A stretch of 64,000 nucleotides of DNA from Minisyncoccota bacterium (GCA_018060545.1 JAGOVW010000003.1:343-64342); one strand, 5' to 3'. Counted from the stretch's first letter, positions 3,987 through 64,000 are shown. Numbers and translations are program-made. The notes: generated from the letters alone by a model not told the origin.

Positions 3987-3987
3987 A

Positions 3988-5472: not shown

Positions 5473-5551
5473 AAAAGACTCCGCGTACAGTGCGGTGATT
5501 CCATAGTATCAGCTTTACACTCTCCTTCTCTTTTTTGTGCACAGCGAAAAA

Positions 5552-5914
5552 TTATTCGCGTGAACGCATGATCCAGAAAAGAATTAAGAACGAACCCAAC
5601 ACAATGCACGCTATATCGAGCGAACTGAAGTAGTAGTAGGTTGAGGGGCGAGTGCACGACAGATAGTCCGCTGTATTTCCATCACAGAATTTGTCGCTTT
5701 CGAAACTAAAGACGCCGATGAGAACGAGCGCCGTCCCCAGAAAAAGCTCGATTTCTCTACTGAGTACCTCAATGAATTGAGAGAGTCGGTCGAGAAAACC
5801 GTTAAACAGGTGACTCACAATAAGCCCTCCGATGCGCATCGTGCGACCCACACCTCGTCGGTGCTCAGCTGCGTGCTTTTCTGTTGATTCAGTCATACGG
5901 GCACAGTATACCAT
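5552..5914 (-). CDS. Small integral membrane protein (hypothetical)
   Basis: 120-aa ORF with two hydrophobic segments, 16 nt downstream of the preceding gene in the same-strand array. Confidence 0.4.
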   Translation of the reverse strand: MVYCARMTESTEKHAAEHRRGVGRTMRIGGLIVSHLFNGFLDRLSQFIEVLSREIELFLGTALVLIGVFSFESDKFCDGNTADYLSCTRPSTYYYFSSLDIACIVLGSFLILFWIMRSRE

Positions 5915-5929
5915 CCAAATTGCACTGCA

Positions 5930-24600: not shown

Positions 24601-25897
24601 TCGTCTCATCTGCGTCGCTTTCAGAGAGGTCAAATTGAACGTTGTCTGATACTTCTGGATGCGCCGGTCCTTCGCCATCAATCACGTCTTGTGCCCGCTC
24701 TTTGTACAATGCGTCAATCCATAATGCATCGAGAAACAGCTGCTGCGATCCGGAACCATCGGCACGAACATACTCGAGCATCACCCGTGCCCCTTGAAAA
24801 TCTTCCCACGTGTCAATTTCATCAAGCGCCACTGAGAAAAAGCCGTTGTTGGTGTGGTTTGACAACTCTTTGTTAAGAAAAATTCCACCTGCTTCCTTCC
24901 ATCGGCCGTCCACAAAATAGCGCGCAACAACGTTGTCTTCCGCTCCTTCAAAAACCGGCTCATCACCTGCAAAAGAAAACACCAGCTCTGCTCCTACAAA
25001 AGGCTTCTCGGCCAAATCACCATACACACCAAAGCCTGAAAATTCGATAGTGTGGCACGGTGTACCATCGATGACACAGGTCGATATGTCTGGCGCTTGA
25101 GAGTGTGATGGAGTCGCTGCGTTTGTAGGCTCATTCTCTGTAACGGTCACCACCTCGACCGCAGCGTCTTGCTTGGGTGTGGTTGTTGACGTGACGTCTT
25201 CCAATTCCACACCATCGGTCGTTGTTGCAAATACAGGTGTGGTAAGTAGTGAAAGCAGTGAAAATGCGCCCTCACGTACAGCAAACGCAAGTGGCAGGGT
25301 GCTTCCGTCGTTCATACTCGTTGGCTCACTTATCACAGCAGGGACAACTTCAGGAGCAGCGTCAGGTACAACACTCTCAGTACTCTCTGCTTCCTGTGGT
25401 ACTACCACTTCTTCTGCCGCCGTGTCTTCAGGCACGGCGTCTGCTGTGCCCGCTTCTTCATTCGCTCCACCATCGATTACATTCGTAGATGTTTCCTGCG
25501 CAGGAGAAGCCTCCACGTCAGCATCGTTGTGTGTCGTGGATTCCACAACATCATCAACAGGAACGTCGATTGAGGTTGTCTCGGGCAGTGCCTCAGAACT
25601 TTCACCATGAATTACTGGGGCTTCAGAAGGCACCTGAGCATCTGCGCGAACGTACGCAGCAATATCTTCAGTAAAGCTTGCACGCACCGCATCCTCGGAA
25701 AGATCCTGAGTCAGTGCCTTCTCTGGGGCGTGCCACCCTTCTGCAGTAACAACAGTTGGGAAAATGTGCGCACGCTTCACCTCACGATACGCCATAACAA
25801 ACGAACTGGTCGCCCATAAGGTATAGCCAAGAATACCCAACACCACAGCGGTGACGGTGATAAATTTCCACGGGATTTTTGCAGTGCGAGGACTCAT
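6608..25897 (-). CDS. Giant (6429 aa) membrane-anchored surface protein. After the N-terminal TM anchor comes an acidic/Pro-rich linker, then FN3-like modules (TTYYWRVRA motifs), then long beta-helix/Gly-Thr-Ser-rich repeat tracts and a Cys-rich C-terminal region.
   Basis: A single uninterrupted 19.3-kb ORF. It has an N-terminal signal-anchor (ITVTAVVLGILGYTLWATSSFVMAY) and three FN3-like 'F..EKT..TP.F.F...DP....YQ.Q.D....F' + 'YYWRVRA' modules. Internal near-identical ~158-aa repeats (GSLYSQDHAAVDGDLYIWGEYARSTGSDYWSYATDFDGVALGGSSRQVDVRVATSS occurs twice) and a good 3rd-position GC bias are also present. Confidence 0.85.
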   Translation of the reverse strand: MSPRTAKIPWKFITVTAVVLGILGYTLWATSSFVMAYREVKRAHIFPTVVTAEGWHAPEKALTQDLSEDAVRASFTEDIAAYVRADAQVPSEAPVIHGESSEALPETTSIDVPVDDVVESTTHNDADVEASPAQETSTNVIDGGANEEAGTADAVPEDTAAEEVVVPQEAESTESVVPDAAPEVVPAVISEPTSMNDGSTLPLAFAVREGAFSLLSLLTTPVFATTTDGVELEDVTSTTTPKQDAAVEVVTVTENEPTNAATPSHSQAPDISTCVIDGTPCHTIEFSGFGVYGDLAEKPFVGAELVFSFAGDEPVFEGAEDNVVARYFVDGRWKEAGGIFLNKELSNHTNNGFFSVALDEIDTWEDFQGARVMLEYVRADGSGSQQLFLDALWIDALYKERAQDVIDGEGPAHPEVSDNVQFDLSESDADETMLVLDDGSAISFPLVDDIDEDVLTMRTDASSAKVLPGDGASVEKQFFVSVTNTGREEEYFELSAAFPQGSGELKSIAQFLRNVPEVVEHSVYEDVTFFCEGGWTEAVDEEGRHRCVATGQVEQCAWFNDTKENCTVAHVLVGTEKQTAYQSTWVPLAIGVPGIDWALFSPLPEGFVTTSVVAERILVLPEQTVYFRVTTALPNGGENPLILQASGERYYGDIDMRFLRNERDWLAQEEAAERDVAAKKVNRKLSEKSQFEGNEQPQFRFKFNSQRSFAARFADRLLGKKDTFAVRQARLKHTDGQFETVPVDIIYDSSGEWTLTLTKKPRGFRPGKYQMEVVIVEGRNTFTDTVEFYWGVLAINSHKSVYEPGENAALMMAALDDTGDTLCDAHLQLLVQAPEGPEQEVPIRTSGLCGHNNVVDVADYLADYVTGGIGTYAMTLTHFGEAGEVLHRINDAFEVRNDPSFVVERSGPTRIYPKEPYRMTLSITARRDFEGVITEAIPEDTILVDKADGSVEQYNGAIRLSWDVALAAGETKVISYVFDSPDISPYLYVFGPLTMKEGDAVAFEELRTWKVASDALGSYQEKYSSWTPTVAGAWQEKNLASAPFSVPANAVAEIAVVNGDFNTEVYGGVRHSTSTNDRRFQLHEAEPSGVTMMTMHVQVSATSSIQTYAEDTTNISFVLLGYWTDGRYVESFTQIDPTLTNNTWGIINLSSYGVSHGNVVEMALGNWDTVAEMNAGVRAASSSLSRLANIHESEANGVNGVTMMVRASSTNATIEGFAQVKGANGASVDFWLMGYWQTSPTGLLYTERFDDLGGPTSASTWTDRALDGFTVPPTGIAEVLYANAADANSSMIIGARTNASTLGRSFNIHEAETGGWSIGKAHVKAGSDASSTIEYFTDDTTNDQFRLLGYWAAANYPTDAPTLYGEPFESQKTGSSTPSFRFSASDPDGTSSILYQIQWDDDPTLDDAPIGDRSSDVETGCSPNCFQNIATPADTSPFNEGEQIRFTIPTSLVSGTTYYWRVRATDVSGSNLASEWSTVQSFTYVANTDPSQWFQTQDTQFETGTLSSVETSGNNAAELSLTPPDDALVAYGEGTVTTPRYRLWDGTAWGSEGSALDVGGIIQYVVTKAGTTRDEFVLATQDAVNDVNVQIFSATTTTWRNLQEVTAGVANNQRRGFDVAYETLSGDALVVFCDGDADPAYYVWNGSVWTGPTSINIGSALNCEYIKLASDPVSDEIILVERNTGSIYEAQVWDGSGWSFSQTLGSMSDAAHEGIAVEYEESGEQAMVVVSNAGNANFAWATWDGALLDWSIPTTQAIGNDFEWGILRQDDGSDQLGLCYGDQDDDMGSLIWDGAGWAVFAAATNEFETTGTTNNRAGSGTIEGTPVTCEFETTAGRDGYLMIPYSDNTAARSQYWNGTAHSGESTLPTIQDSWRVTSARAGDGDILALYHDDLNGLFDFSYWDGTSWSAAQTLENSPSVTAAPFREPISIAAKVYQSNSGTIQSDPIAFSSVPNRTTWGEALWSTNEPSGTDVTVQVMYESGGVCSSLLPDGVLTGNSTGFQASASPIDLSSVSTTTYSSLCLKATLTSSNTYVPSLTDWTLSWERSPYLTQEHYRWYVNTNAATPSDVWPSGASEVVTDAAIQIADGAPSLNDVLRLRMTILVSNVALSSSALSLTLQYAADANCSAGSEWFEVGEIGSTTAPWRGYNNAGVSDGATLPSVLLTTADVAATYEEENDSATNPNSISTTQEGEWDWVLQHNATEGTNYCFRVITSEGETLNAYSTYPALVTNAKPTAPSLMKLFDNEKTASTTPWFEFTAEDPESNDMTYQVQIDDTYDFSSAVVDRDSQTNFTEFSNVTTPADKDPFTAGQTIRFIPTTALSNGTTYYWRVRAKDRNNSNTWSSWSTIYSLTVDTSITVATWHQTRLEQFDTNSFEDTEATSTHDVVLTPPLTLGTTTSSAIDFDNGSSGNAWGSLSWTDNETTGDIRYHIEYLDSSAAWVTVPDTDLSGNHAGFGSGSPVSLLSLSPTTYNQIRVRANLTSIGGSPRLNDWTVSWGYAVGQATSTAPFDNEKVGTTTPTFRFGSDDPQNDSLIYEVSISTTQDFTASTTRRSDLHSGFTNTASSTDTSPFKDNNSIAFHLQQADALTNGVTYWWRVRAIDPAPGAGVWSVWSDLQSFTIDTSVTVSTWFQTTDDQFETDTLSSVETYGSNIARISTTIREAFMAYAEGTTQAPRYRIWTGTAWGSELSGVSTGDTIRFVEAAASPTRDEYIVGTLGSTGVVKTQVYNGTTDSFGNIKEVESTVANALARGFDVAYETSSGDAMVVSCRGTEAVFSVWNGTSWTATSSIALGTTGNCEWVRLAADPASDEMVLVVRSAIAGATDYEAQIWNGTAWGVSPMTMGSQLVANAEGMFVEYEESGGQAVVGVANGANNNFIWNAWNGSGWDGTNTAGVQNDFANGRLVRDVGSDRMGLCYIDIDSDLGFLEWSGSGWNTFAEFEGTGNTTNGFHARPVSCEFETTAGRDGYLMMMHSDSLIVEYEYWTGSGSATTPAQISTLGDSWEVRSARTGDGNILALTYNDGDTQYDFSYWNGTQWSTAQIIETNSIPTLTPATIPLDIVARRYPTFNSGTITSSELDFDSGTGPKWQRLLFSDSTPGASDILYQIEYFTSTSSWAVIPNVDLAGNMTGTSTSPLDISNLNRITYNQIRLVANLACAAGICPSLNDWTIEWSDGITLSGTAKQYDETTNVTSGTVAVAVNGVLQAGKTGTISAGAWSIPSVTAFAGDVITVFVDGAADNSEAVALTVYDGTGDITGMQLFEQHVSLGSQDVPTMTNANISQYDNSISGDEDIFFEVDAGNDFAACGLAECTQVKLYVASSTTFRPDSTSGGNVTTHDLVLNGYFTADGNTITATGSWDNNGTFTKDTSTVILTATSTTETIDGTGATTTTFYNLTFGQTSGAATWNLSSALDVDGALNLTYGTLNQNGNKAINVASNMTISTNGVFTKGTATTTFDGTGSSTFTDNTVAKQDMGIVTVDGSTKTLLLGAASKMTDVTIGADDILSVNNNYALEVLGNFINNNSFVAQSGTVTFTATDTGNTITPGTSSFYNMTFNGVGGNWAFTGSTLTAGNNFTIATGTVTMPTATTTVTGNFDNTGGTFMHNNGILLLNAASAKTIRTNGSSLYDTVFNGTGSWSFLETTATSSRHVTLTAGTVTLPSGTFAIGGSLSKNGGTMTHNSGTLRFTAATAQTIRLNGSDVYNLTFNGTGGSWSFVDTHATATNAIRIEQGALTLPSGVFAVGGSWLSSVGTFTHNSGTVKFNSTDSGESINPGASPFYSMSFDAVGGGWTIASHATSTNNTSITRAASFTLASGQTLEVGGTFTNSMGGATTTWTGSTLFLNSGTAYSVNTKAQSGDTYETLRIGANTDIKLWNSSASGYTVDATGSLYSQDHAAVDGDLYIWGQYTPTGNEFWSYATDFDGTALGGSSRQVDVRLGSGASVFVGSNTLQILGGSAASTTVANQGSGTYALQVGTGATLQAQYYQVRNTDANGLWISGTATVNNLSDGDFELGTNGGTMITVAGTAIDQNPALQIQRGAFATSTGISSGFNVVATGTPTSYWWFRNHSGNYDGEDYDTDPTGNPGNVRWDNSGFSITVSGNVYASEGSGAIGNPPCDGSAVVRIVVDGGSAYTGTCDGGTGAYSIPGVSFAGDAVLTAYLNTNGGKRAVTVTKTPTADITNLDLYENTLIVRHEDTAAITIANLALYDSSNDADIFFTAATGSPDTLTVAPENELHILAGKTFAPGGNITLESGGSGDARDGRLHVGVGSTFTGAGTESHAIGGGLVIESSGTFTPANTTLTLTATTTGKVLSTVSPLTLYNLVLNGVGGGWLLSGTGTTTVQNGLTLTAGTLGGTGDLVVQSGDVAGAGTITMTGGTVRIESTGNFANSNPWQFRNLTLGNGVAARTTTKTGSATTTVAGTLTVAANHTLAAGSSAWVLTGGGTPLVVGGTFTVQTAPFSFVATTTTSVLDETYALLHLAPAAAGSPTFTVQGGTLTAGNLVVGDGTNPVTVTLNTNDPSTNVTGNLTIGSGATLVASNVGALDVGGSWLNTGTFTHSSGSVLFNSTDTGEVVASGGSLFNSVNFNSSSGGWTITENATSSGSFSITNANSFTLNPGITLEVDGTFTNSVGGSATTWTGSNLYLNSASSYSMNTKTAGGDVYNTLLIGANTDVRSWNTSAGTTTVNSTGSLYSQDHAAVDGDLYIWGEYARSTGSDYWSYATDFDGVALGGSSRQVDVRVATSSTLTYSGGLLDIIGDAAASTTIDVQGTGAYAFSVSGGTFNASYYVLRNTNASGLNITGSPTVTSLSNGDFELAVNGGTMLTVAGSVITANPLKIFTRNTFATSTGISSGFNVRATGSTASSWKFNLHYGNYDGESFNDDPAGDPGYIRWDDSSSDITIEGHVYSDEGTSVSSVCDGITPVVRLMVQGAGSYTSSCDGTGLYSITGVFFNPGDTLTVFLDTNGGVRAANVSVDPITNITDMDLYENRVIVRHEDTTPINIADMVIYDADDDSDIPFTATDAVTDTLVLPAEKKLIVWNSKTFAPAGNITVNSGGSGNAWDGSLEVQTGATLTAAGTQSHAVGGSFTLGSGATFASASSTVTLTATTTGKTINPQSSSFYNLVFNGVGGNWSFASGNATTTGDVTVTNGTLTMPSGTLSVAGSFDNSGGTIMHNNGTLYLNAAAIGKNIRTNNSNLYNLTLNGAGGAWSFLDTNATTSNNFTVTAGSTTLPAGIFAVGGSFANTGTFNHHGGMVKFTAAAIGKTIQASGSNFYDLVLNGTGGAWTFLDTNATTSNNFTLTTGSTTLPAGIFAVGGSFANAGTFNHNTGTVAFYANTTGKTVAVGGSLFYGARFNSSSGGWTITENATSSGSFSITNANSFTLNPGITLEVDGTFTNSVGGSATTWTGSNLYLNSASSYSMNTKTAGGDVYNTLLIGANTDVRSWNTSAGTTTVNSTGSLYSQDHAAVDGDLYIWGEYARSTGSDYWSYATDFDGVALGGSSRQVDVRVATSSSVTISGTGGLQAVGVAGASTTIAIYGSTGTYTWAVSGGTLNMNYYQVRNTDANGLNITGSPTVTSLSNGDFELSTDGGTMLTLAGSAIDANASKQVDSVRFATSTGVSTGYNVTRTGSPITAWDFSNHLGNYDGEAFDSDGGDSCGAVRWDDSTCLFVSQEHYRWRNDDGTEGALDSEWYSASWSKRQKIAVTNGTSTAFTNFPVEIQVAYDADMQSDFDDLRFTSDDGTTLLNYWREESSASVSSTVWVELPTLAANGSATIYMYYGNGGVAGADDGTAVFDYFDDFEDDNISEYSGDTTLFDTDTTFNHNYVYGLDAGANSADQTTSGIRRTGSLTAQGKTIRFFQYVDSTQDDEPCTLFGVGGSGSNYAVCLDEYPTDRLVLAKNVTSNDGSGTHIASTTVSYSTGWYEVVVDWHVGNTIVATVYDDTGAEFASTTATDSTHTSGGVGFSFWGQHGGWDFYSVRTYTQVEPTYIFGAEQGSGGATWKAAEDTALSAQSIGENVRLRFSVQNTGAAIFSQNFRLQYAAKGSALNCESVPYVNYNDVPTTSGGCGSSPACMTTTAEYTDQAGTAGLLSYPANLSYSLGKVIEDPSNQTSSTTIAANAATEVEYNFELTANATDPAYCFRTSDGGLDLDNYDRVAEVALLHTPEIAGFNLNNDLSITLTEGATTTVYATGTVTDLNGYADLLFATTTIYRSGVGVTCSADENNCYQVASTSCSFSNCAGNSCTLSCRADLQYFAEATDAPSAYPSENWLARVFIQDSSGERVFDTIAVPVEVLTVFGLAVNTADIDFGSLEVGSNTAGVNEQTTILNTGNSSIDIQVAGTDLAGSEGSIAVGEQKFATSTFTYGACAICQFLTGSATNVEVDLPKTTASTSPSSDDVYWGLNVPTGTKAELHQGTNTFIATSD
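9357..9829. repeat. Intragenic repeat copy A: 473-bp core identical to 11664..12136, part of a ~2.3-kb tandem unit inside the giant gene
   Basis: Direct comparison of the two stretches. They are identical from gtcgccacccgcacatccacctggcg... to ...ccacctgaggaggagttgaa at an offset of 2307 bp. Confidence 0.8.
11664..12136. repeat. Intragenic repeat copy B (identical core to 9357..9829)
   Basis: Same as copy A. The flanks are similar but diverged (e.g. 9121.. versus 11431..). Confidence 0.8.
14089..14560. repeat. Intragenic repeat copy C: diverged (~80% by eye) third unit of the same tandem repeat
   Basis: cgcacatccacctggcgcgaactgccaccaagcgc...ccatcgaaatccgtcgcatagctccag aligns with copies A and B at offset ~2415 bp. 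The protein-level repeat is GSLYSQDHAAVDGDLYIWGQYTPTGNEFWSYATDFDGTALGGSSRQVDVRL. The end coordinate is approximate. Confidence 0.55.
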
Positions 25898-56599: not shown

Positions 56600-56643
56600 A
56601 GAATCACTGTAGCACGCATCGCATATGGAGTGGCGGCCACTAG

Positions 56644-57159
56644 TTACACAGTGCCTTCAATTTCTTTTGGTTGCGTATACGTCCAGGTTTCAATCTCTTT
56701 ACCATTGAGGTACACAAACACCTGTACCGAATCGAAAAGGTCGGCAACCGCATACATGCGCTTTCCTACATGTTCCCGTTCTGTGGATGCGTGCTGTGCA
56801 CTTGCTTTCAGCTGATTAACGGTGCTGCCACTGCGCGCATCCACGATACTTGCCGGATTACCATCTAAATCTTTTTGCGCCCAGCGGATGTAGTGCTGCA
56901 CCTCGCTGAACTCATCTGGTGTTGCAATCGATGCCATGGTTGGAATACGGTCTTTGATCGCATGCATCTGTGCTTCGAAATCACTCTGTCGCGCCTCGTG
57001 AGTATCACCGCCCCCTTCCGTTGGTACAGGTGTTGGCTGTACCGCACCCTCTGATACTGCATCAGCTACTGGTGCAACTTCCTGCTTATTTTTTCTGCCT
57101 GGCAAAAATGAAAATCGCATATGTGAAAAGGATAGCATGTGTATCACCGCATCCTGCAC
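56644..57159 (-). CDS. Hypothetical protein (171 aa, no Cys) immediately downstream of the Ubl/E1/JAB operon
   Basis: ORF only. 74-nt gap from the Ubl gene. Confidence 0.4.
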   Translation of the reverse strand: MQDAVIHMLSFSHMRFSFLPGRKNKQEVAPVADAVSEGAVQPTPVPTEGGGDTHEARQSDFEAQMHAIKDRIPTMASIATPDEFSEVQHYIRWAQKDLDGNPASIVDARSGSTVNQLKASAQHASTEREHVGKRMYAVADLFDSVQVFVYLNGKEIETWTYTQPKEIEGTV

Positions 57160-57233
57160 CCCTCAAAAGCAAAAAAGAGAACCGCCCAGCACGCTGGGCG
57201 GTTCGTATAAATGAACAGGTCACGGTGCCAAGG

Positions 57234-57494
57234 TCAGCCCTTGTCGCCGGCCTGCTTGATGACCTCGATGTTGTCGCCGGGCTGGATCACGTAGGTGCGC
57301 CCGGCTGCCTTTCCATTCACGAGCACAGATCCCTTCCACGGTTCGTTGTATCCCATCACGTCGGCCACATCCTGATCGCCGAGGAAGTCCTCGACGGTTC
57401 GGCCGACCGCATCGAAACTCTGCGTGGTCGGACCGTACGAGAGGGAGAGTTGCACGCTGCCCGTGGTCACGGGCGAGTCTGCGATGTCGCTCAT
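57234..57494 (-). CDS. Ubiquitin-like beta-grasp protein (ThiS/MoaD-like), 86 aa, C-terminal ...QAGDKG
   Basis: ..VLVNGKAAGRTYVIQPGDNIEVIKQAGDKG fits the ThiS/MoaD 'V.vNg......l.dGD.v.i' pattern with a terminal Gly. The 4-nt overlap (ATGA) with the E1 gene implies translational coupling. Confidence 0.6.
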   Translation of the reverse strand: MSDIADSPVTTGSVQLSLSYGPTTQSFDAVGRTVEDFLGDQDVADVMGYNEPWKGSVLVNGKAAGRTYVIQPGDNIEVIKQAGDKG

Positions 57495-58189
57495 TTCTTG
57501 GTTCCTTCCGTTCTTAGTACCGGGCGTTGTTGCCCACTCTTGATGTCGAAATACAGTTCACTGTACACGACACCAATTTCTGTGATGACGTAGAACGCGT
57601 TCGCCATATTGGCGGCCGCGGTGAGATTCGCAAATGCCAACTGTGGCGTCCCCAGGGCCGAGCGCTCTTCGCAACTTAGCTCGTCGGGATTCCGATCAGT
57701 GGGCTTCTGAATCTCGGGGTGCAGGTAGGTCAACGGCGGAGTCACGTTCTTCTTTCCCCGACGAATATACACCTGCACGTTGCCGTCGTCGAAGCCGTTA
57801 CCGCCCGAAATGAGGGTCCCGTCTTTGAGTGTGGCGCAGTGGTCGGAGAGCAGCTTTCGCGTCGCGTGGTTATCAACGCACGAGAACACCACACTCCCTT
57901 CCGGAATCAGCACGAATGCATTGTCGTCGGTGATGAACCGCGGCTTTGCATCCACCTGCAATTCCGGTAGTAGTCGCTTCAGGCGGGCTGCAGTTACTTC
58001 TGCCTTGTTACCCAACGCGTCAAATTCTTGGCGCGCTTCATTCTTTGGCTCGTACTGATCTCCATCCACGAGCACGAGCTGTGCCTGCGGAAATGATTGG
58101 CGCAGATAGCGCGCCAGTGGCGGCGCCAGGTGCGTGCCAATACCTCCGAGGCCAACGATAACAACACGGCGAATGTCAGGTTTCTTCAT
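57491..58189 (-). CDS. E1-like ThiF/MoeB-family adenylyltransferase (232 aa, minimal E1 without rhodanese or Zn extension)
   Basis: RVVIVGLGGIGTHLAPPLARYL (GxGxxG), LVLVDGDQYEPKNEARQ (the 'D.D.ve.sNlnRQ'), KAEVTAARLKRLLPELQV, SCVDNHATR (the 'DN...R'). SD AGAGGAG 7 nt upstream. Confidence 0.75.
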   Translation of the reverse strand: MKKPDIRRVVIVGLGGIGTHLAPPLARYLRQSFPQAQLVLVDGDQYEPKNEARQEFDALGNKAEVTAARLKRLLPELQVDAKPRFITDDNAFVLIPEGSVVFSCVDNHATRKLLSDHCATLKDGTLISGGNGFDDGNVQVYIRRGKKNVTPPLTYLHPEIQKPTDRNPDELSCEERSALGTPQLAFANLTAAANMANAFYVITEIGVVYSELYFDIKSGQQRPVLRTEGTKK

Positions 58190-58916
58190 GGAGTACTCCT
58201 CTTGTTGGCGACGATGCTTGTGGTAGCCGAGCAGAACTTGAATGAGTCACATTGTTCACCCATGATTCGGGAACTTCCCAATCCATAAGTGCGGGAGCGT
58301 CGCTGTGAAAGCTGTACGCCCCTCGCCGATCTTGCCACGAGAACCGTCCGTCTTCTTGCACGCCACCCACATGGGTGTCGATGCAGAAACGATGACTGCG
58401 CACCACGAGCGACGCTTCCATGGAAAACTTCGACCGTTGGTTCAGATCACCAATGATGATATGTACCCCATCGAAATCTGCCTCGTCTGCATCATCCACC
58501 GATGAATGCCGCGCGACCAGACTTCCATGCGAATGCATGGTGCCGACGCAGCTATATCCAGGAATCCGCTCGCTCATGTCGTAGTGTACGTGCGCTGCAC
58601 TCACTATCTGCGGCGGAACAGTGCATGCCCATCCCGCAGGTCCGTGATGCAGCAACACTGCTGCTTCCGAGCGATACAGCTGATAGATGCGCCGGAAGAA
58701 TAGCAACACCTGCCCTACCACCACCGCATCAATCGGTGGCAAGAGAAGCTGTGCCTGGGGGCGTTCCCGCTCGAGTGTTGCCACATCGATGGGTACCGTC
58801 GCTGCAAGCCAGTTATTCCTGATGCGCAGAAAAACCCCGTTTGTCGCCACCACATGTGCAGTGGAAACATGGTCAGGTATCTGCACACCAGGTCGTTTCA
58901 GAAAGACCGGTAGCAT
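58176..58916 (-). CDS. JAB/JAMM (MPN+) metalloprotease, deubiquitinase-like
   Basis: JAMM motif HSHGSLVARHSSVDD (H-x-H-x7-S-x2-D) with an upstream Glu (YRSEAA). GAGGAG SD. Overlaps the E1 start by 14 nt. Confidence 0.7.
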   Translation of the reverse strand: MLPVFLKRPGVQIPDHVSTAHVVATNGVFLRIRNNWLAATVPIDVATLERERPQAQLLLPPIDAVVVGQVLLFFRRIYQLYRSEAAVLLHHGPAGWACTVPPQIVSAAHVHYDMSERIPGYSCVGTMHSHGSLVARHSSVDDADEADFDGVHIIIGDLNQRSKFSMEASLVVRSHRFCIDTHVGGVQEDGRFSWQDRRGAYSFHSDAPALMDWEVPESWVNNVTHSSSARLPQASSPTRGVLHEET

Positions 58917-58921
58917 ATGGT

Positions 58922-60376
58922 TTACTCCTCACGTCTTGGTTGTTGATCTTGCAACGCACCGCCGAGCTGATCAGCCACTGCAGAGAGCGCCGAAGCGAGC
59001 GTTTCGTTGATAGTTTCTTGCACCTGTGTTGCCGCACGTTTGCTCACTGCCGCAACGGTGTCGCTTATCTTTGCGTCGGTGCACGCTTTTTCAAGCTCAG
59101 AACGAATCAGATCGGCCATCCGTTGTGCAATGCCGGCTTCATGTAGTGCGGTGCGCATTTTCTCGTCGAATGATGCGCGTGCTGCGGCGACGCCTTTCTC
59201 GTCGCTCACAGCATTAACCACTGCCTCTCGAATCGCCAAACTTAATGCGCCAGACACATCGTGAGAGTATCGTTCGAGTCGTGACATGGCTCGCCCTGCA
59301 TTGAATGCAGTAGCTTTTGCTGGTGCTCGCGCACCAAAGCTTGCCACAGTGAACCCACTCTCAAGCCACCGAATCTTCAGGACATCGAGCGGACGCCCAG
59401 AACTCGTCGTACGCCACGTGCGCAACGAAAAGTCAGGGATCTTTCGTGCCGACGCTTCGTAGTGCGCATTCAGATGATGTGAACTAAAGCTGCTCTCCCA
59501 AAAAGATAGTTGCGCCGACACAGCGATATCTGCCGGTGCACCACGCGTTACACGTGGCGCAGGAAAGCAGAGCGCCAAGTCGGGATGCAAATCCGGAAGA
59601 GGTGGCCGATGCAAACGATCGGTTGGAAGCGCGAGCGGTTCGTTTCTGAAAAACGCGTGAAAGTTGTTGTACCTCCCGTTCTCCAGCACGAGCGCAAACA
59701 CCACATATGGAAACGAAAGCTGCACGAGCTCACGATCCCATCTAATAGTGCGTACGCGCGGCGCCTCTTCTATGAAGTAGATCGTCGTCGAGTCGCCTCG
59801 GTAGACAAAGCGAGTACCAATCGGAAGCGCGGTGACTTGTTCGTCACGCGATACCCCGGCACCTGCCTCTTTGCGGGCATACACAATCATTTGAGCGAGG
59901 CACTCTTTAATGCCCTGCTCAAACTGTTTCTGCCCAATCGTTCCCGCAGCCTCTACCATCGATCGGTGTACTGCCTGGATGGCAGCACGTCCTTCGGTAG
60001 CAAATGCTGCTGGCAATTCCTCGGTGCCCAAAACCAGCGCATCAACCTCGCGATTGAATGCGTTTCGAGCACGACCGGAACGCTGCTTTGCGCTGCGCTC
60101 CACTGCCTCTCTGATAGTGCTCTGCGCCTCTTGGCCCAGCTTTTGTAGCGCTGCAGAAACTTCCTTCGCTGCTGTTGCTGCAATACTCTTTAGTGTGAAC
60201 GACTCATGCTCCACCACAGTGATGCGGGGAAATATGAGCCAGAACCACCCACGCTGTTCGAGCGAAAATCGCCTGAAAGCGTGCTCTTTCTGCGGGTCAC
60301 GCTGAAAGATAGATTGCTTACACAACTGCAACCAAGAAAGATCTCCCGCCACGCTGTGCCTGATACGGCTAAGCAT
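58922..60376 (-). CDS. Hypothetical 484-aa protein, first gene of the Ubl/E1/JAB operon. It is a candidate E2-like or target-recognition component.
   Basis: 5 nt upstream of the JAB gene with an AGAGGAG SD. It contains ..LPDLHPDLALCFPAP.. (HPx-x3-C, reminiscent of the UBC 'HPN...C' active site), but this is unverified. Otherwise the sequence is Ala/Arg-rich and helical. Confidence 0.5.
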   Translation of the reverse strand: MLSRIRHSVAGDLSWLQLCKQSIFQRDPQKEHAFRRFSLEQRGWFWLIFPRITVVEHESFTLKSIAATAAKEVSAALQKLGQEAQSTIREAVERSAKQRSGRARNAFNREVDALVLGTEELPAAFATEGRAAIQAVHRSMVEAAGTIGQKQFEQGIKECLAQMIVYARKEAGAGVSRDEQVTALPIGTRFVYRGDSTTIYFIEEAPRVRTIRWDRELVQLSFPYVVFALVLENGRYNNFHAFFRNEPLALPTDRLHRPPLPDLHPDLALCFPAPRVTRGAPADIAVSAQLSFWESSFSSHHLNAHYEASARKIPDFSLRTWRTTSSGRPLDVLKIRWLESGFTVASFGARAPAKATAFNAGRAMSRLERYSHDVSGALSLAIREAVVNAVSDEKGVAAARASFDEKMRTALHEAGIAQRMADLIRSELEKACTDAKISDTVAAVSKRAATQVQETINETLASALSAVADQLGGALQDQQPRREE

Positions 60377-60514
60377 GTGCGTTTCTCCTCTGTACGTTAA
60401 GGTTCAATCCAGACGGTTCATACCATAAAAACAGGGGTTTGTATACACGCGCTGATTTACATTCAGCACGCACAGTGGTATCACCTCTAGGGACAACAAA
60501 GCTGGGAGTGACAC

Positions 60515-61114
60515 ATGCCCACCATCATCGCGACGCTCAAGAAAAATCCTGAAGACCACGCGCTCTTGCACGACATGTATCGCCATGTGTATCTGAATGG
60601 CGAATGCTACGCATTCGCCATTGCCCTGAACGACGGATTAGGCTGGCCAATGGTCGGCCTCATGAAAGGCGACGTCATCTGGCACGCCGGCGTTCGCGCT
60701 CCTGACGGGCGGATACACGATGTGCGCGGCTTCCTCTCTGAGGAAACATTCGCCTCGTACTTCTTGTCTCCCCCGTTTGTGCTGCGCACAATTGATGAAA
60801 CGATGATGCGCAACACACGCAAAATCGATGAGCACACCATTAGGTATGCACGCCATCTGGCTGAAACGCTGTGGCCCGAGCTGCCATGGAAAGAAACCTA
60901 CGCCATGAAAGTGCATGCGTTTGCTGAGGAGCTCGAAGCGCTCTCCAGGAAGCATGGATTCTGGATTACGGGCTCGGTACCTGCGCAGGCCCCACGCTTG
61001 TACAAAGAATGTGGCGATGAAGGCGGCTACCGAGTGTGCCCCACGAGCGATGGATTGGCATACACCGTGAGACGCTATCTGGATTTTGAGGTTGACGTGG
61101 ATGATCTCGAATAA
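60515..61114 (+). CDS. Hypothetical protein (199 aa), divergent from the Ubl operon
   Basis: ORF with GGGAG SD and a downstream terminator. Confidence 0.5.
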   Translation: MPTIIATLKKNPEDHALLHDMYRHVYLNGECYAFAIALNDGLGWPMVGLMKGDVIWHAGVRAPDGRIHDVRGFLSEETFASYFLSPPFVLRTIDETMMRNTRKIDEHTIRYARHLAETLWPELPWKETYAMKVHAFAEELEALSRKHGFWITGSVPAQAPRLYKECGDEGGYRVCPTSDGLAYTVRRYLDFEVDVDDLE

Positions 61115-61133
61115 GATCACTCACAGAAAATGG

Positions 61134-61163
61134 AACCGCCGCATTCTGCGGCGGTTTTGATTT
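61134..61163. terminator. Bidirectional Rho-independent terminator between convergent genes 60515..61114 (+) and 61171..61707 (-)
   Basis: aaccgccgc-attct-gcggcggtt followed by ttgattt on the plus strand. On the minus strand a T-rich run (ccattttctgtg) follows. Confidence 0.7.
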
Positions 61164-61170
61164 GAAAGAT

Positions 61171-61707
61171 TTAGACATTACGGTGCGGCGCCCAATGTTT
61201 CTCTGTGATAGTAGAAACCTGTGTTTGAAAGTCAGTACCTACATTAACAACTTCCAGTGGTAATTCCGCCTGAGAAAAGATATCCGCCACCAACGCATCC
61301 CTTTCTATACGATCAGCACGCTGATGCGATGATCCGTTCAGCTCTATCGCAACGATGGGTTTAAAGCTTCTGTCGCATATCAAAAAATCCACATGCTTTG
61401 GAAGTATTTTGTTTCTGCGATTATAGAATCCTACGCCATGCACGGCGTCTATAACATCTGCTATGCGCATATTCGGGAAGAGGTGATACTCGGCCGGCAG
61501 CTGTTTTCTGATTTCAAAAAAAAGTGCCTGCTCGCTGGCGTTCATCACGACAGAGCGTACCCTGTACCCTTTTGGGCGTACATGAACTTGATTAGTGGTC
61601 TTCCCCCCTCCAAAATCAACACCATCGAATCCAACAAAAATCGCGAGGTATAGAAAGAGCCCAAGGAAGAAGATCACTCCGAGACCAACGAAAATCAGAT
61701 TACTCAC
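61171..61707 (-). CDS. Membrane-anchored DUF2726/NERD-like (restriction-endonuclease-fold) protein
   Basis: N-terminal TM (LIFVGLGVIFFLGLFLYLAIFVGF). The core ..KHVDFLICDRSFKPIVAIELNGSSHQRADRIERD.. matches the DUF2726 'VDFvl.d....p..vIElDg.sH' nuclease-fold signature from memory. Confidence 0.55.
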   Translation of the reverse strand: MSNLIFVGLGVIFFLGLFLYLAIFVGFDGVDFGGGKTTNQVHVRPKGYRVRSVVMNASEQALFFEIRKQLPAEYHLFPNMRIADVIDAVHGVGFYNRRNKILPKHVDFLICDRSFKPIVAIELNGSSHQRADRIERDALVADIFSQAELPLEVVNVGTDFQTQVSTITEKHWAPHRNV

Positions 61708-61967
61708 CCACTAACTATAGCAGAGCCTTTTCTCCACTCTCGCCCCGTTGAGTTCATGAAAGATAGGTCCTACGGCTTCCCTACTTCAAATCGAAAGTCG
61801 AGAGTGACAACGTTCCACATGATTAGATTTCGCATGGGTTTAGTTTAAGGGAAAAGATGTGCTGTGACTCACCCGCCCCTACCCCATGCGAACAATCGGG
61901 GAGCTCACGTATGCCTCGCTAAGACGATGGAACCAGCGCATGCTAGGCGGTTTCGATTTCAAAAAAG

Positions 61968-63812
61968 CTAACTAATATCAACGCTCCATGCCGTGTCATA
62001 GGCGTACTGAGCGAGATCCATAGCACGCTTATCAATGAGCTCCTTATCCCATGTTCGCCCTTTGTATTGAGTGATTATACGTTTGCTGTTGCCTAAGTTT
62101 GCAAGCCACTTGCCATCCTCGTCAATTTTTGCAAACTTTTCTTCAGGGGTCGCGTCGTTAAATGAACTGTTTGAATGCATCGATATGACTAGCAAGTTCC
62201 CTATGTTGTCACCACTTTCAGGCCCGACCAAGTCTCCTTTCCTCTGAAACAGACTTCTGGGGTAAAAGTGCTCAATATTGGCACTATTTTTCTTAATATC
62301 GGAAGACGGGACATACAGAGGATAGATCTGATCCCCTTGCGATTCAGCGTTTGCCAAGCGGTCGAAAATGTAATACGTAAGAGGCTTTCCAATTTCATCA
62401 CTACTAATGCTGGAAAATTGAGAGATAAACGACTTGCGCTTGTTCCTAAGCTCAAGCAGCTTTGTCTTAAGTTTCTGTTCTTTCTCAATGAGAGTGGCAA
62501 AATCCGGGGCATCACTGAACGCTTTTGCATACTCGGCGTACAGTGTCTCAACTTGATTTCCGATATTTCCACCAATAACAGTATTAATAAAATGGAAATT
62601 TTCCAACCTTTTTATAAAACAAATAAACAACTCACCACTCGACTTCTTTCCACTAGGATTCGCCCCATCTTCTGTTGAGAATCGTTTTAGCGCTTCGAGG
62701 TAGGTATAGATCAAAGGGTAAAGTTGAGTAATCCCAAAAAGCTGGAATGCTGAGATTGAGCGAACAATTGGATTTCGCTGGTATTTCTTACCCAGCAGGT
62801 GCAGACTACCCATCTCCTCGAAGTATTTTAAAAGACTTTCGCCATGCGCAAAGGTAATGTCTTCATCCAACATCATCCTATAAAAAAACGAGAAACGTAA
62901 GAGATTTTCAACCAACTCGAGAGTACTCTTTCCTTTTACGAGAACATTCAGCTTAGGGAAAATATCCTTCCTAAGAGTTTTGCCATTAAAGGTGACAGTG
63001 TAATACTTCAACATTTGACTCAACTTGTCAGATGAATTCGCGGAAATTTGATCCCATTTTTGATCGATTTCATCATGCAATGATTCCTTGGAGTTCTGGA
63101 ATAGGAGGTTTTTGACAAGATCAGATTGAGCCAATTTGACTCCTCTAGCATTTGTTCGCTCAAAAATATCAAATGCTTCTTGTGGGTCATCTAATTTTAT
63201 CTCGGTCACAAAAATGCGCTGCAGCGAATTCAATATTTCAGCCAATTCGCTCGATGACAGACTCTTAACTTTGTCATGGAGGAAGTGAAAAACAGGTTCC
63301 ACTTTTCTCTTCATCTTCCGATATCTTCTGCCATCGAGTCCCTCAATCTTGTCGGGGATGTGACCATCCCACTTATAATCAGACATCAGGTCATACAAAG
63401 GCTTGATTCCTTTAGCAGGTGTCAATTTTTTTATTCCAGTATTTTCAGCTCTGGCAAATCGGTTCGCCACGTAGTCAATTAGGTTCGTCACATTCGAAAT
63501 TAAAAGAGGATCATCATTCAGAATTTTGGCTCGCACACGAATTGCTATGAATAGGATCTGTAAAGTGGTGATTCTCTGCTGCCCATCAATAATTGACAAG
63601 GTGTCGCCTGCGGTGCTGCTCCTAAGAAATATAAAACTACCAAAGAAAAGTGAGTCTTTACCTTTTTGATTAACCGACTCTAAATCAGCCCAGAAGTTCT
63701 CAATTTGCTCCTTCCCCCAATCATACCCACGTTGAAATCGAGGAACTTCGTATAAAACTTCTTTTTCAAACACCGATATAAGGTCGACGTTATGAGGTTC
63801 AAATTTAGCCAT
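61968..63812 (-). CDS. GmrSD-family type IV (modification-dependent) restriction endonuclease: N-terminal DUF262 (ParB-like NTPase) fused to C-terminal DUF1524 (His-Me finger nuclease)
   Basis: DUF262 motifs ..FQRGYDWGKEQ.. and IIDGQQRITTLQ (DGQQR). The C-terminal ..NIEHFYPRS.. His-Me/HNH-like motif is typical of DUF1524. 614 aa. Conspicuously AT-rich relative to neighbouring genes. Confidence 0.8.
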   Translation of the reverse strand: MAKFEPHNVDLISVFEKEVLYEVPRFQRGYDWGKEQIENFWADLESVNQKGKDSLFFGSFIFLRSSTAGDTLSIIDGQQRITTLQILFIAIRVRAKILNDDPLLISNVTNLIDYVANRFARAENTGIKKLTPAKGIKPLYDLMSDYKWDGHIPDKIEGLDGRRYRKMKRKVEPVFHFLHDKVKSLSSSELAEILNSLQRIFVTEIKLDDPQEAFDIFERTNARGVKLAQSDLVKNLLFQNSKESLHDEIDQKWDQISANSSDKLSQMLKYYTVTFNGKTLRKDIFPKLNVLVKGKSTLELVENLLRFSFFYRMMLDEDITFAHGESLLKYFEEMGSLHLLGKKYQRNPIVRSISAFQLFGITQLYPLIYTYLEALKRFSTEDGANPSGKKSSGELFICFIKRLENFHFINTVIGGNIGNQVETLYAEYAKAFSDAPDFATLIEKEQKLKTKLLELRNKRKSFISQFSSISSDEIGKPLTYYIFDRLANAESQGDQIYPLYVPSSDIKKNSANIEHFYPRSLFQRKGDLVGPESGDNIGNLLVISMHSNSSFNDATPEEKFAKIDEDGKWLANLGNSKRIITQYKGRTWDKELIDKRAMDLAQYAYDTAWSVDIS

Positions 63813-63931
63813 ATAGCAATGGTATCACCACATCGTACGGAACACATCGGCCCAGCTACGGCTTTTCGAATCCAAGCTGCAGTATGCCCCCAGCATACTG
63901 CTTCCCGCAGCAAAATCTACTGCGTATATTT

Positions 63932-64000
63932 TGCTGCCGGACTTGGATTCGAACCAAGATACCCTGCTCCAGAGGCAGGAGTCCTACCATTAGACGATCC
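63932..64000 (-). tRNA. tRNA-Gln (anticodon CUG), 5' end truncated by the window edge (~4 nt missing)
   Basis: The reverse complement reads ..GGATCGTCTAATGGTAGGAC-T-CCTGC-CTCTGGA-GCAGG-GTAT-CTTGG-TTCGAAT-CCAAG-TCCGGCA-G-CAA. It has D-loop, anticodon loop with U33-CUG, T-loop GGTTCGAATCC and acceptor 3' strand TCCGGCA. Confidence 0.6.

Follow-up and report, generated by a model that had tools for sequence, protein, structure and literature searches.

The AT-rich segment at the end of the 64,000-nucleotide stretch of DNA analysed here (the window) is probably, at roughly three chances in four, a single, intact, stand-alone gene for a GmrSD-like restriction nuclease of the HEC-06 type, situated 3' of a tRNA-Gln(CTG) gene in a CPR/Patescibacteria genome. 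Bacteria of this group have very small genomes and are believed to depend chiefly on defences of the restriction type. Our analyses support the view that the gene, a nuclease gene of defence type immediately 3' of tRNA-Gln, is foreign in composition, and comparative data indicate that it is probably horizontally mobile. As judged from synteny, the foreign unit appears to be one ORF and not a two-gene island. The features of the locus, from the window end inwards, are these:

63933..64000, minus strand: tRNA-Gln (anticodon CTG), the gene extending 4 nt beyond the window, to 64004 (Rfam; ARAGORN on the parent contig)
63813..63932, minus strand: 120-nt spacer from the tRNA to the GmrSD gene, with two strong hairpins and an inverted T-arm copy (fold; shuffles)
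61968..63812, minus strand: probable solitary HEC-06-type GmrSD-like gene, 614 aa, 40.8% GC (Pfam; PADLOC; motifs; AF2; composition)
61927..61963, no strand: repeat B, about 40 nt long, a decayed duplicate of terminator A next to the stop codon of GmrSD (alignment; fold)
61840..61926, no strand: lineage-specific spacer from repeat B to the conserved region upstream of DUF2726 (blastn and alignment against the relative L020)
61171..61838, minus strand: apparently resident DUF2726 gene (61171-61707, 178 aa) with its conserved upstream region (61708 to about 61838) (Pfam; conservation in L020)
61130..61167, no strand: repeat A, a perfect bidirectional terminator hairpin separating the DUF2726 and 199-aa genes, which converge on it (terminator scan; fold)
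60515..61114, plus strand: resident gene for a conserved hypothetical protein of 199 aa, which bounds the locus on its inner, conserved side (homologues; L020)

Identity and predicted structure of the nuclease gene

An earlier, sequence-only reading of the window had placed a GmrSD-like DUF262-DUF1524 gene of about 40% GC at 61968..63812, and this proved correct. On a single chain, the product matches Pfam GmrSD_N (DUF262, PF03235; E 2.1e-33, residues 15-238) and GmrSD_C (DUF1524, PF07510; E 2.7e-07, residues 460-602), each exceeding the gathering score. The PADLOC model for HEC-06 (PDLC04154) covers residues 3-612 with model positions 6-567 of 569 (E 1.9e-57, 193 bits), the next-best families being Orf5 (151 bits), SspE (54 bits, N-terminal only) and mREase_IV (34.5 bits). 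The NTP-hydrolysis motif DGQQR, as defined in work on GmrSD (PMC4619093), is present as D76-G77-Q78-Q79-R80 and, like S46 and the EH and N...N motifs, shows no variation across 12 close homologues and a wider set of 117. The C-terminal His-Me/HNH residues, whose roles are taken from the same work (PMC4619093) and from HEC-06 mutants (bioRxiv 10.1101/2024.01.29.577857), are E514-H515 (within IEHFYP), N539 and N548; H515, N539 and N548 are invariant in the 117 sequences. The protein is full length relative to its homologues, and comparison with the closest of these, at 75% identity, gives a dN of 0.17 and saturated dS. The gene is embedded in neither an Hma nor a type I R-M system; its neighbours are the tRNA and DUF2726 genes, and no helicase, methylase or ATPase gene adjoins it among the window ORFs or at the contig end.

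A model based on only 12 sequences reached a pLDDT of 60, too low to be of use. The final AF2 model (pLDDT 90.9, pTM 0.81) has a ParB/Srx-like N-domain, a helical linker and a beta-beta-alpha C-domain, and a Foldseek search of the PDB returned whole-chain matches to SspE (E 5.7e-14) and DndI (9JFL; E 5e-13, TM 0.61-0.64), with BrxU (7P9K) absent among the 50 matches listed. DndI is also matched in sequence (E 1.1e-14), at about 17% identity. These being the closest solved structures, and PADLOC giving weak SspE matches on the N-terminal domain, the protein could be read as a phosphorothioate-sensing effector of the DndI/SspE type, in which a backbone modification spares self DNA and unmodified invader DNA is nicked. 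However, no dnd, ssp or iscS-type genes were seen in the 28 window ORFs scanned, among the genes called in the last 13.6 kb or in seven homologue neighbourhoods. The low identity to DndI, the full-length HEC-06 score of 193 bits, far above the 54 bits of the N-terminal SspE match, and the ability of HEC-06 to defend E. coli alone make this reading extremely unlikely.

The tRNA-Gln gene and its spacer

Rfam detects a tRNA at 63934-64000 on the minus strand (46.4 bits). Both the tRNA call and the inspection of the contig end were made on the parent contig, JAHZTO010000632.1 (L001; 64,505 bp), which belongs to MAG GCA_020049755.1, labelled 'Candidatus Pacebacteria bacterium'. There, ARAGORN identifies tRNA-Gln(CTG) at 163-234, corresponding to 63933-64004 (minus strand) of the window, in agreement with the tRNA-Gln that had been proposed beside the nuclease; on the 64-kb window alone ARAGORN reports no tRNA, because the window end cuts the gene 4 nt short. 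The tRNA gene and GmrSD share a strand, with 120 nt from the end of the former to the start codon of the latter, placing the nuclease gene on the 3' side of the tRNA. Only 166 nt of contig follow the window end; past the tRNA there are 162 nt, host-like in composition (55.6% GC) and ending in a same-strand ORF.

The 120-nt spacer folds at -47 kcal/mol (z -2.1) with two strong hairpins. Within it, 12 nt of the tRNA T-arm recur in inverted orientation at 63865-63876 (TTCGAATCCAAG, plus strand); this copy pairs with 63942-63953, and its score was reached in 0/300 spacer shuffles. The att-repeat search that had been suggested as a check gave a negative result: across the 64 kb there is no direct copy of the tRNA 3' end as a 22-mer with up to 3 mismatches, no exact repeat of it of at least 11 nt, and no gapped local alignment above a score cut-off of 20 (shuffled probes' 95th percentile, 23). 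The sequence-only reading had seen no integrase in the window; there is none anywhere in the contig, and no recombinase domain among the precomputed Pfam matches for its last 13.6 kb. Neither the contig nor the repeat searches of the 64 kb yielded an integrase, transposase or att repeat accounting for the arrival of the GmrSD gene.

Base composition

The GmrSD ORF has 40.8% GC, compared with 52.5 +/- 1.9% in windows of the same size elsewhere in the stretch (minimum 47.0%; z -6.2), and values of 46/33/44% at GC1/GC2/GC3, against roughly 60/42/56% in other genes. Its Karlin dinucleotide distance is 163, against 70 +/- 21, a value reached by 0/194 background windows (delta* z 4.3), and its composition-normalised tetranucleotide correlation is 0.39, against 0.705 +/- 0.07. 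Low GC is restricted to this ORF, the spacers on either side having about 49% and the locus flanks 52-56%. The contrast drawn by the sequence-only reading is therefore real, and windowed GC and tetranucleotide usage, which it had named as a check, are far from uniform; its figure of 55-60% for the flanks was too high. The DUF2726 gene, at 45.8%, is intermediate, as had been said.

The same reading took AT-richness as a signature of horizontal transfer. The composition is indeed deviant, but the offset is shared by the whole family: the GmrSD gene is AT-richer than its flanks in 26/26 loci, by a near-constant 11 points or so, and its GC tracks that of the host (r=0.85). Together with saturated dS, this constancy marks the deficit as a family trait and not as a mark of recent arrival, and so low GC cannot by itself be read as evidence of recent transfer. 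A universal deficit that tracks host GC is also compatible with long residence.

The DUF2726 gene and the limits of the foreign segment

The DUF2726 ORF (61171..61707, minus strand; GTG start, 178 aa; Pfam DUF2726, E 2.8e-20) encodes an N-terminal transmembrane helix and a PD-(D/E)XK/Vsr-like domain, and both the helix and the catalytic-type residues are conserved in 16 CPR homologues. Homologues with a named organism come from CPR MAGs (Minisyncoccia, Nomurabacteria, Pacebacteria). The protein has no PADLOC or NCBIfam match, and DUF2726 is a neighbour at none of the GmrSD homologue loci in seven annotated neighbourhoods. The close relative L020 keeps the DUF2726 gene (protein 85% identical), about 130 nt upstream of it, terminator A and the 199-aa gene (itself 80% identical), all at 80% nucleotide identity; neither GmrSD nor a tRNA lies beside DUF2726 there, an acetyltransferase standing in their place. 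By blastn and alignment, the synteny breakpoint falls at about 61825-61850. Because the contig stops shortly beyond tRNA-Gln, the left flank of that gene is missing, and consequently a clean empty site, conserved on both sides, could not be demonstrated.

Repeat A (61130..61167), conserved in L020, folds at -17.9/-20.8 kcal/mol (z about -4). Repeat B aligns to it with a score of 39; over the whole 64 kb, the best score among 100 shuffles was 34. Repeat B folds poorly now and is missing from L020. The 199-aa protein, which has no Pfam, PADLOC or NCBIfam match, has 134 homologues at E<=1e-5, of which the 120 listed are 41-100% identical; where a source is named among the matches listed, it is a Parcubacteria/Paceibacteria-type MAG.

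These data bear on whether GmrSD and DUF2726 form one horizontally acquired, tRNA-integrated defence island, possibly reaching an integrase past the window, as the sequence-only reading had it. Both genes are AT-richer than their flanks (40.8% and 45.8%), encode nuclease-fold proteins and lie on the same strand between the tRNA and conserved genes, and DUF2726 proteins have been reported near mobile elements in some phyla (PMC3424549). Yet the arrangement in L020, with DUF2726, its upstream region, terminator A and the 199-aa gene retained and GmrSD and the tRNA missing, largely refutes a joint acquisition, and the CPR origin of the named DUF2726 homologues fits vertical-type retention of a gene that lacks a PADLOC match and is never beside the GmrSD homologues examined. 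Moreover, classic islands occupy the 3' side of the tRNA, which here is inside the window and holds no integrase, and past the tRNA the contig offers only the 162 host-like nt. We therefore regard a two-gene island as very unlikely. What remains of the earlier proposal is a mobile, foreign GmrSD gene beside a tRNA, shorn of the second gene, the integrase and the att repeat; its suggested comparison with relatives did find GmrSD and the tRNA absent at the corresponding place in L020, but DUF2726 retained. On this comparative evidence DUF2726 appears to be a resident, lineage-typical, membrane-anchored nuclease-fold gene of a CPR-wide family, outside the acquired unit.

A deviant segment at a contig end in a metagenome-assembled genome might also be an artefact of assembly or binning, the AT-rich last 2.3 kb having been wrongly joined from another organism. 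The junction at 61,700-62,000 is known from one assembly; a fragment from a second, independent assembly, L102, is identical over 59541-61723 and stops before it. Nevertheless, the GmrSD stop codon adjoins repeat B, which is itself a diverged duplicate of the resident terminator A, GC returns to host-like values in the tRNA and in the 162 nt past it (55.6%), and the order tRNA-Gln then GmrSD is found independently in four other loci (L003, L006, L034 and L038). An artefact is scarcely credible in the light of this.

Distribution and tRNA linkage of the family

A genome scan recovered only 10 loci among 185,579 species representatives, and the family was not found on viral contigs. GmrSD proteins of 59-75% identity are shared by MAGs whose labels place them in different CPR groups, their genes having a GC3 of 26-29% in 50%-GC hosts, and relatives adjoin unrelated housekeeping genes in MAGs labelled Saccharibacteria, Lloydbacteria and others. 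At seven related loci, homology to the window stops at the ORF limits, plus the tRNA where present. These comparisons show that the GmrSD clade is spread over several CPR lineages and that its neighbourhoods are unrelated. Of the traits by which an island may be recognised, a deviant composition and a presence that varies between relatives are both seen, with the caveat that the GC offset is family-wide.

At the CPR loci L003, L034 and L038, the GmrSD genes that come after the conserved block dus-dnaX-tRNA-Gln(TTG) represent three different subfamilies (30-37% mutual identity), and other members of these subfamilies are located elsewhere. GmrSD identities are incongruent with those of DnaX, which is 50% identical between L003 and L034 where GmrSD is only 30%; L104 has no GmrSD at this site. 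Across the family, a tRNA lies within 1 kb upstream on the same strand at 8 of about 25 informative dereplicated loci, five of the eight being tRNA-Gln, compared with 0/60 control loci of distant DUF262-only relatives. Gene order shows the family to be recurrently just downstream of tRNA genes, above all tRNA-Gln. This adjacency to tRNA-Gln spans GmrSD identities of 29-100% and could in part be ancient synteny.

Another account takes the gene as an old, vertically inherited CPR resident, ancestrally linked to tRNA-Gln, whose low GC would be intrinsic (a Lys/Asn/Ile/Phe-rich protein, weak expression, AT-biased drift). It agrees with the family-wide offset (26/26 loci, about 11 points, r=0.85 with host GC), with the lowering of GC1 and GC2 by as much as GC3, with dS saturated even against the nearest homologue, and with tRNA-Gln adjacency from 29% to 100% identity, including the conserved dus-dnaX-tRNA-Gln block. 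It sits poorly with the patchy distribution (10 loci), with flanks that differ in every genome, with the absence of the gene from the L020 counterpart locus and from the L104 dus-dnaX-tRNA-Gln site, with three subfamilies at one site and the disagreement between GmrSD and DnaX in L003 and L034, and with proteins 59-75% identical, encoded at GC3 of 26-29% in 50%-GC hosts, in differently labelled CPR MAGs. Strictly vertical descent therefore seems unlikely to us, and a horizontally moving single gene is preferred.

In three distant relatives (L038, L014 and L036) the tRNA 3' end is repeated exactly, over 15-23 nt and in direct orientation, between the tRNA and GmrSD, leaving GmrSD outside the att-like repeat pair. 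All three carry inverted T-arm copies as well as direct tRNA 3'-end repeats; the window has the inverted copy alone. It is conceivable, though we hold it to be doubtful, that HEC-06-type GmrSD genes spread as single-ORF cassettes lacking an integrase, among ultra-small CPR bacteria and also in some other lineages, and home to the tRNA 3' flank, preferentially that of tRNA-Gln. They might do so by recombination anchored on conserved tRNA sequence, or by hitch-hiking on, or surviving from, small tRNA-Gln-specific integrative elements; this second route would leave scars of both kinds, the inverted T-arm copies and the direct 3'-end repeats. If true, genomes deemed poor in mobile-element machinery would possess, at the tRNA-Gln flank, a dedicated and exchangeable slot for defence.

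Proposed mode of action

By analogy with characterised relatives, the N-terminal ParB/Srx-fold DUF262 domain would bind and hydrolyse NTP through DGQQR, the long helical linker would mediate dimerisation, and the C-terminal DUF1524 His-Me (HNH-like) domain would nick or cut DNA. Because there are no partner modification genes nearby, the protein is most likely a type IV-like enzyme acting against phage DNA with a modified base, a mode and substrate that we infer. The closest solved structures, DndI and SspE, are phosphorothioate-sensing proteins and not readers of base modification, which counts against a type IV assignment. A self-contained enzyme, functional when transferred alone, would explain movement as an ORF-sized unit.

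Comparison with known systems

HEC-06 (Hma-embedded candidate 06) defends E. coli, and the substitutions Q79A/R80A and E471A/H472A abolish defence (bioRxiv 10.1101/2024.01.29.577857). The gene described here resembles it in a full-length profile match, DGQQR at the same numbering (Q79/R80), S46, the (E)H motif and a single protein of similar size. It differs in that HEC-06 is found in Hma/type I R-M systems of Proteobacteria, whereas our gene is solitary, lies beside a tRNA in a CPR genome and is known from sequence. Embedding in Hma/type I R-M systems is how HEC-06 was found and not a requirement for its function (bioRxiv 10.1101/2024.01.29.577857). The GmrSD type IV enzymes (EcoCT596 GmrSD, Eco94GmrSD) share DUF262+DUF1524, DGQQR and H...N...N, and likewise stand alone with no methyltransferase (PMC4619093), but the relation holds only at the level of Pfam domains, the PADLOC type IV model scoring 34.5 bits on the N-terminus, and glucosyl-hmC DNA specificity is not inferable for the CPR gene.

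DndI (IscS-DndBCDE-DndI) and SspE (SspABCD-SspE) are the closest solved structures and have the same two-domain design of NTPase and HNH nickase (PMC11662687); they have adjacent PT-modification genes, which are found neither here nor beside the seven homologues, and identity to DndI is about 17%. BrxU, which is BREX-embedded and described as targeting modified phage DNA (PMC8565348), has a GmrSD-like fold and motifs, but there is no BREX context here, and the nucleotide-binding motif RLFDS described for BrxU (bioRxiv 10.1101/2024.01.29.577857) is missing from the N-terminus. Islands linked to tRNA genes offer a further parallel, in the deviant defence gene directly 3' of a tRNA and the variable occupancy of one tRNA site among genomes; they differ from this locus, which has a single gene and lacks both an integrase and an att direct repeat, and from the relatives with att-like repeats, which have the gene outside the repeat pair.

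The locus provides a concrete example of a stand-alone, apparently functional nuclease of the GmrSD/HEC-06 type in CPR, and therefore suggests that the DNA of phages infecting these hosts may be modified. An enrichment of the EggNOG 'Defense mechanisms' category among genes transferred in Patescibacteria has been reported (PMC12455944). The family's preference for the tRNA-Gln 3' flank is specific and statistically clear, and this flank could be surveyed systematically as a defence hotspot in CPR genomes. Set beside these systems, it is a defence gene of an unremarkable, horizontally moving type, and current views are not overturned by it.

Results

A solitary GmrSD gene beside tRNA-Gln

The AT-rich stretch at the right end of the window is a solitary, intact GmrSD gene (DUF262-DUF1524 restriction nuclease) of the HEC-06 type, situated in the 3' flank of a tRNA-Gln gene of a CPR bacterium. 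The locus is a real but ordinary feature in which no integration machinery can be recognised, rather than the two-gene nuclease island, DUF2726 plus GmrSD, that the sequence-only reading had proposed.

Features at the right end of the window
60515-61114, + strand: 199-aa gene, conserved hypothetical
61130-61167: repeat A, perfect bidirectional terminator hairpin (terminator scan)
61171-61707, - strand: DUF2726 gene, 178 aa (Pfam DUF2726, E 2.8e-20)
Between the DUF2726 and GmrSD genes: intergenic region, 260 nt
61927-61963: repeat B, ~40-nt copy of repeat A, abutting the GmrSD stop codon
61968-63812, - strand: GmrSD gene, 614 aa (Pfam GmrSD_N, E 2.1e-33; GmrSD_C, E 2.7e-07)
Between the GmrSD gene and tRNA-Gln: spacer, 120 nt, holding an inverted T-arm copy
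63933-64004, - strand: tRNA-Gln(CTG) (ARAGORN on the parent contig; Rfam match 63934-64000)

The tRNA-Gln gene expected at the window end was borne out by both Rfam and the ARAGORN call on the parent contig; ARAGORN reported no tRNA in the window itself because the gene loses 4 nt at the window end. The parent contig is JAHZTO010000632.1 of MAG GCA_020049755.1; at 64,505 bp it exceeds the window only slightly, stopping 166 nt beyond its end, and the fragment past the tRNA matches neither DnaX/HolB (as in loci L003 and L104), nor the 855-aa gene of L006, a GmrSD-homologue locus, nor the acetyltransferase of L020, a contig from a close relative. Elsewhere in the window there is a giant ORF of 6,429 aa (6608-25897, - strand) in which repeats recur every ~2.3 kb, two of them being 100% identical across 300 nt; its neighbours are MacB/FtsX-type ABC transporter genes and genes for fibronectin-III and cohesin-domain proteins.

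Among PADLOC models the GmrSD protein scores best with HEC-06, at 193 bits and E 1.9e-57, its residues 3-612 aligning to positions 6-567 of the 569 in the model; Orf5, SspE and the generic type IV model score well below this. The protein contains a DGQQR motif at D76-R80, S46, IEHFYP (E514-H515), N539 and N548, none of which varies across 12 close homologues or across a family alignment of 117 sequences; their counterparts in GmrSD have been defined as NTPase and His-Me finger residues (PMC4619093). An AlphaFold model from the 117 sequences reached pLDDT 90.9 and pTM 0.81, a first model from 12 sequences having been discarded (pLDDT 60), and its significant PDB matches are DUF262-DUF1524 enzymes, SspE (E 6e-14) and DndI (9JFL; TM 0.61-0.64 over the whole chain), of which DndI was also recovered by sequence search. 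NCBIfam gave no match for the GmrSD, DUF2726 or 199-aa genes, and neither did PADLOC for the DUF2726 protein. The GmrSD gene is full length when set against its homologues, and the closest of these (75% amino-acid identity) gives a dN of 0.17 with dS saturated, hence no dN/dS ratio; these values point to an intact gene under purifying selection.

Composition of the GmrSD gene and its family

The GmrSD ORF has 40.8% GC, compared with 52.5 ± 1.9% in same-size windows elsewhere (minimum 47.0%; z = -6.2), and all three codon positions are lowered (46/33/44% versus about 60/42/56%). Its Karlin delta* is 163 versus 70 ± 21, a value reached by 0 of 194 background windows, and its composition-normalised tetranucleotide correlation is 0.39 versus 0.705 ± 0.07, so the ORF is deviant on GC, dinucleotide and tetranucleotide measures alike. 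This deficit is restricted to the ORF: the adjoining spacers have about 49% GC, the tRNA 57% and the 162 nt past it 55.6%. The DUF2726 gene is intermediate (45.8%); its signature z-scores, and those of the 199-aa gene, were not used, both genes being too short against 1.8-kb background windows. By-eye estimates of ~40% GC for the GmrSD gene and of an intermediate DUF2726 gene were accurate, and that of ~55-60% for the flanks was too high, 52-56% being measured.

Across the GmrSD/HEC-06 family, the gene has a lower GC than the DNA around it in all 26 loci with usable flanks (L001-L038), by a mean offset of -11.4 points (range -1.6 to -18.8), and gene GC follows flank GC (r = 0.85); the offset of -12.6 points in the window is typical. 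Because the offset is family-wide and gene GC tracks that of the flanks, GC taken alone is a weak argument for transfer, and the offset may stem either from transfer between hosts alike in GC or from a composition inherent in the family.

Extent of the variable segment

L020, a 7.6-kb contig of GCA_021733565.1, was reached via a DUF2726 protein of 85% identity, and by blastn its positions 4928-6305 align with window 61824-60455 at 80% identity. The aligned block comprises the DUF2726 upstream region, the DUF2726 gene, terminator A and the 199-aa gene; an acetyltransferase gene precedes it in L020, and upstream of it neither GmrSD nor the tRNA is present. Since this relative keeps the block without GmrSD or tRNA, DUF2726 is a resident gene, and the variable unit is GmrSD by itself, between about 61,840 and the tRNA. 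The proposed island therefore divides: GmrSD is variable among relatives, and DUF2726 is conserved with no joint variation. What the window has in common with seven loci of GmrSD homologues is confined to the ORF, start codon to stop codon, together with the tRNA where present.

For the 199-aa protein, 134 homologues were found at E≤1e-5; among the 120 listed, identities are 41-100% and the named sources are Parcubacteria/Paceibacteria-type MAGs. DUF2726 homologues with a named source organism likewise come from CPR MAGs, and the 16 members aligned all have a transmembrane helix at the N-terminus, along with D107/E122/N124/H128-type residues that are invariant. In the literature DUF2726 figures only as a PD-(D/E)XK protein of unassigned function (PMC3424549). 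The NCBI name belongs to a 124-aa version of the protein; the 178-aa GTG-start form (61171-61707) is probably the real one, since it is kept, transmembrane helix included, in the 85%-identical homologue and in 16 CPR homologues.

Further left, an operon of Ubl-like, ThiF(E1), JAB and 484-aa genes (56600-60455), host-like in its oligonucleotide signature, is an indel relative to L020, which has unrelated DUF2200 and 176-aa genes (~1.1 kb) in its place between two conserved genes, a rhodanese gene (nucleotide identity 93%) and the 199-aa gene (80%). The locus thus has two separate variable segments flanking a resident DUF2726/199-aa pair. In L105, a relative whose homologue of the 199-aa gene is 63% identical, a PIN_12 gene is embedded in a type I R-M system (HsdS, HsdM, HsdR; 10807-16609) that lies 2-8 kb from that homologue, which places another defence system in an equivalent neighbourhood. 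Small GIY-YIG genes (78-84 aa) are found at L004 12095-12331, L006 9678-9932 and L105 6058-6303; GIY-YIG and Peptidase_S51 genes (the latter in L004 and L007) recur beside GmrSD homologues in different CPR genomes, and one GIY-YIG gene is near a 199-aa homologue in a CPR genome.

Soundness of the junction

Repeat B is about 80% identical to repeat A with one indel, and abuts the GmrSD stop codon as repeat A abuts that of DUF2726; their alignment score of 39 compares with a maximum of 34 when 100 shuffled sequences were aligned to the full 64 kb. Repeat A forms a strong hairpin and is present in L020; repeat B has lost the hairpin fold and is lineage-specific, being absent from L020. As a copy of the resident terminator, repeat B marks the 3' flank of GmrSD as native DNA of this genome; it may have arisen by local duplication when the gene was inserted. 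The repeat sequence departs from the R''/R' attC consensus, and an integron cassette was rejected: repeat A is a plain GC-rich bidirectional terminator with a 10-bp stem, and the 64 kb contain no third copy.

That the AT-rich contig end is chimeric might be supposed from the presence of the junction in one assembly only. The second-assembly fragment, L102 (GCA_020047435.1, contig JAHZTN010157300.1, 2.2 kb), is 100% identical to window 59541-61723 and stops short of the junction: its end lies in the intergenic region towards GmrSD, 16 nt before the DUF2726 start codon. A lookup of the identical 199-aa protein returned only the parent contig and this fragment, with no further flank. However, the native 3' flank marked by repeat B and the host-like GC past the tRNA (55.6% over 162 nt) argue against a chimera; the end of L102 may be due to low coverage at the junction or to strains that differ there.

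Association with tRNA genes

Among dereplicated family loci, the gene is preceded by a same-strand tRNA <1 kb away in about 8 of 25 informative cases: tRNA-Gln in five (the window, L003, L006, L034 and L038), tRNA-Pro in L014, tRNA-Ser in L018 and tRNA-Asn in L036. Control loci with more distant, DUF262-only relatives have no tRNA of any kind (0/60). A shared, co-transferred tRNA seems unlikely, since the spacers between tRNA and GmrSD have no homology across loci and the tRNAs are 65-84% identical. L014 also has a second ORF, DUF262-only and with a weak GmrSD_N match (3298-4386), upstream of the tRNA-Pro.

In three of these loci, all from distant relatives, the tRNA 3' end recurs exactly as a direct copy of 15-23 nt that lies 110-180 nt past the tRNA; an inverted 13-15-nt T-arm copy lies about 100 nt before it, and GmrSD is beyond the pair; these scars bound only ~100-180 nt.

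Att-like scars beside tRNA genes
L038: 3737-3859
L014: 4803-4907
L036: 3440-3564
Window: 63865-63876 (inverted copy only)

The 12-nt inverted copy in the window spacer has a score unreached in 300 spacer shuffles. Exact, fuzzy and gapped searches found no significant direct repeat of the tRNA 3' end in the 64-kb window; a degenerate direct copy in the spacer was marginal (score 16, p~0.013) and below the gapped-search cut-off. As the sequence-only reading had noted, no integrase is present in the window, nor in the tRNA-GmrSD loci as far as annotated.

A recurrent site after dus-dnaX-tRNA-Gln

Dus-DnaX/HolB-tRNA-Gln(TTG) is a conserved CPR block, directly followed by a GmrSD-family gene in three loci and by unrelated genes in L104.

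Loci with the Dus-DnaX/HolB-tRNA-Gln(TTG) block
L003: 8708-11765
L034: 868-4066
L038: 2123-5695
L104: 12091-14048

The three GmrSD genes belong to different subfamilies (mutual identity 30-37%) with nearer relatives at other loci, and their identities are incongruent with those of the adjacent DnaX (L003 versus L034: 50% for DnaX, 30% for GmrSD). Different subfamilies at one site, not following DnaX, suggest a repeatedly refilled hotspot and not vertical descent, and the block looks like a refillable defence slot.

Discussion

A scan of 185,579 species representatives yielded only 10 GmrSD loci, and members of the close clade (53-75% identity), from MAGs labelled Saccharibacteria, Lloydbacteria and others in their records, are always lone genes amid unrelated housekeeping genes; a search for viral carriers in IMG/VR found no relative of the clade. 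The GmrSD gene is thus horizontally mobile over evolutionary time; a recent arrival is not demonstrable, since dS is saturated even against the nearest homologue. Of the acquired defence island originally envisaged at the tRNA, the mobility of GmrSD stands, and the classic island machinery and the membership of DUF2726 do not. Candidate routes of arrival would be small tRNA-specific integrative elements that later decayed, or recombination anchored on the tRNA. Only the preference that the family as a whole shows for tRNA-Gln flanks in CPR genomes is mildly new.

DndI and SspE rely on adjacent phosphorothioate-modification genes (PMC11662687). Unlike them, the GmrSD gene has no such neighbours: none was found in the 28 window ORFs scanned, in precomputed Pfam matches over the last 13.6 kb, or beside any GmrSD homologue examined. 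The protein would therefore most likely act alone, attacking modified invader DNA in the manner of a type IV enzyme. HEC-06, a single GmrSD-like protein, protects E. coli against phages, its defence being lost in the DGQQR mutants Q79A and R80A and the nuclease mutants E471A and H472A (bioRxiv 10.1101/2024.01.29.577857); the GmrSD protein matches nearly the whole length of the HEC-06 model and has the same DGQQR motif.
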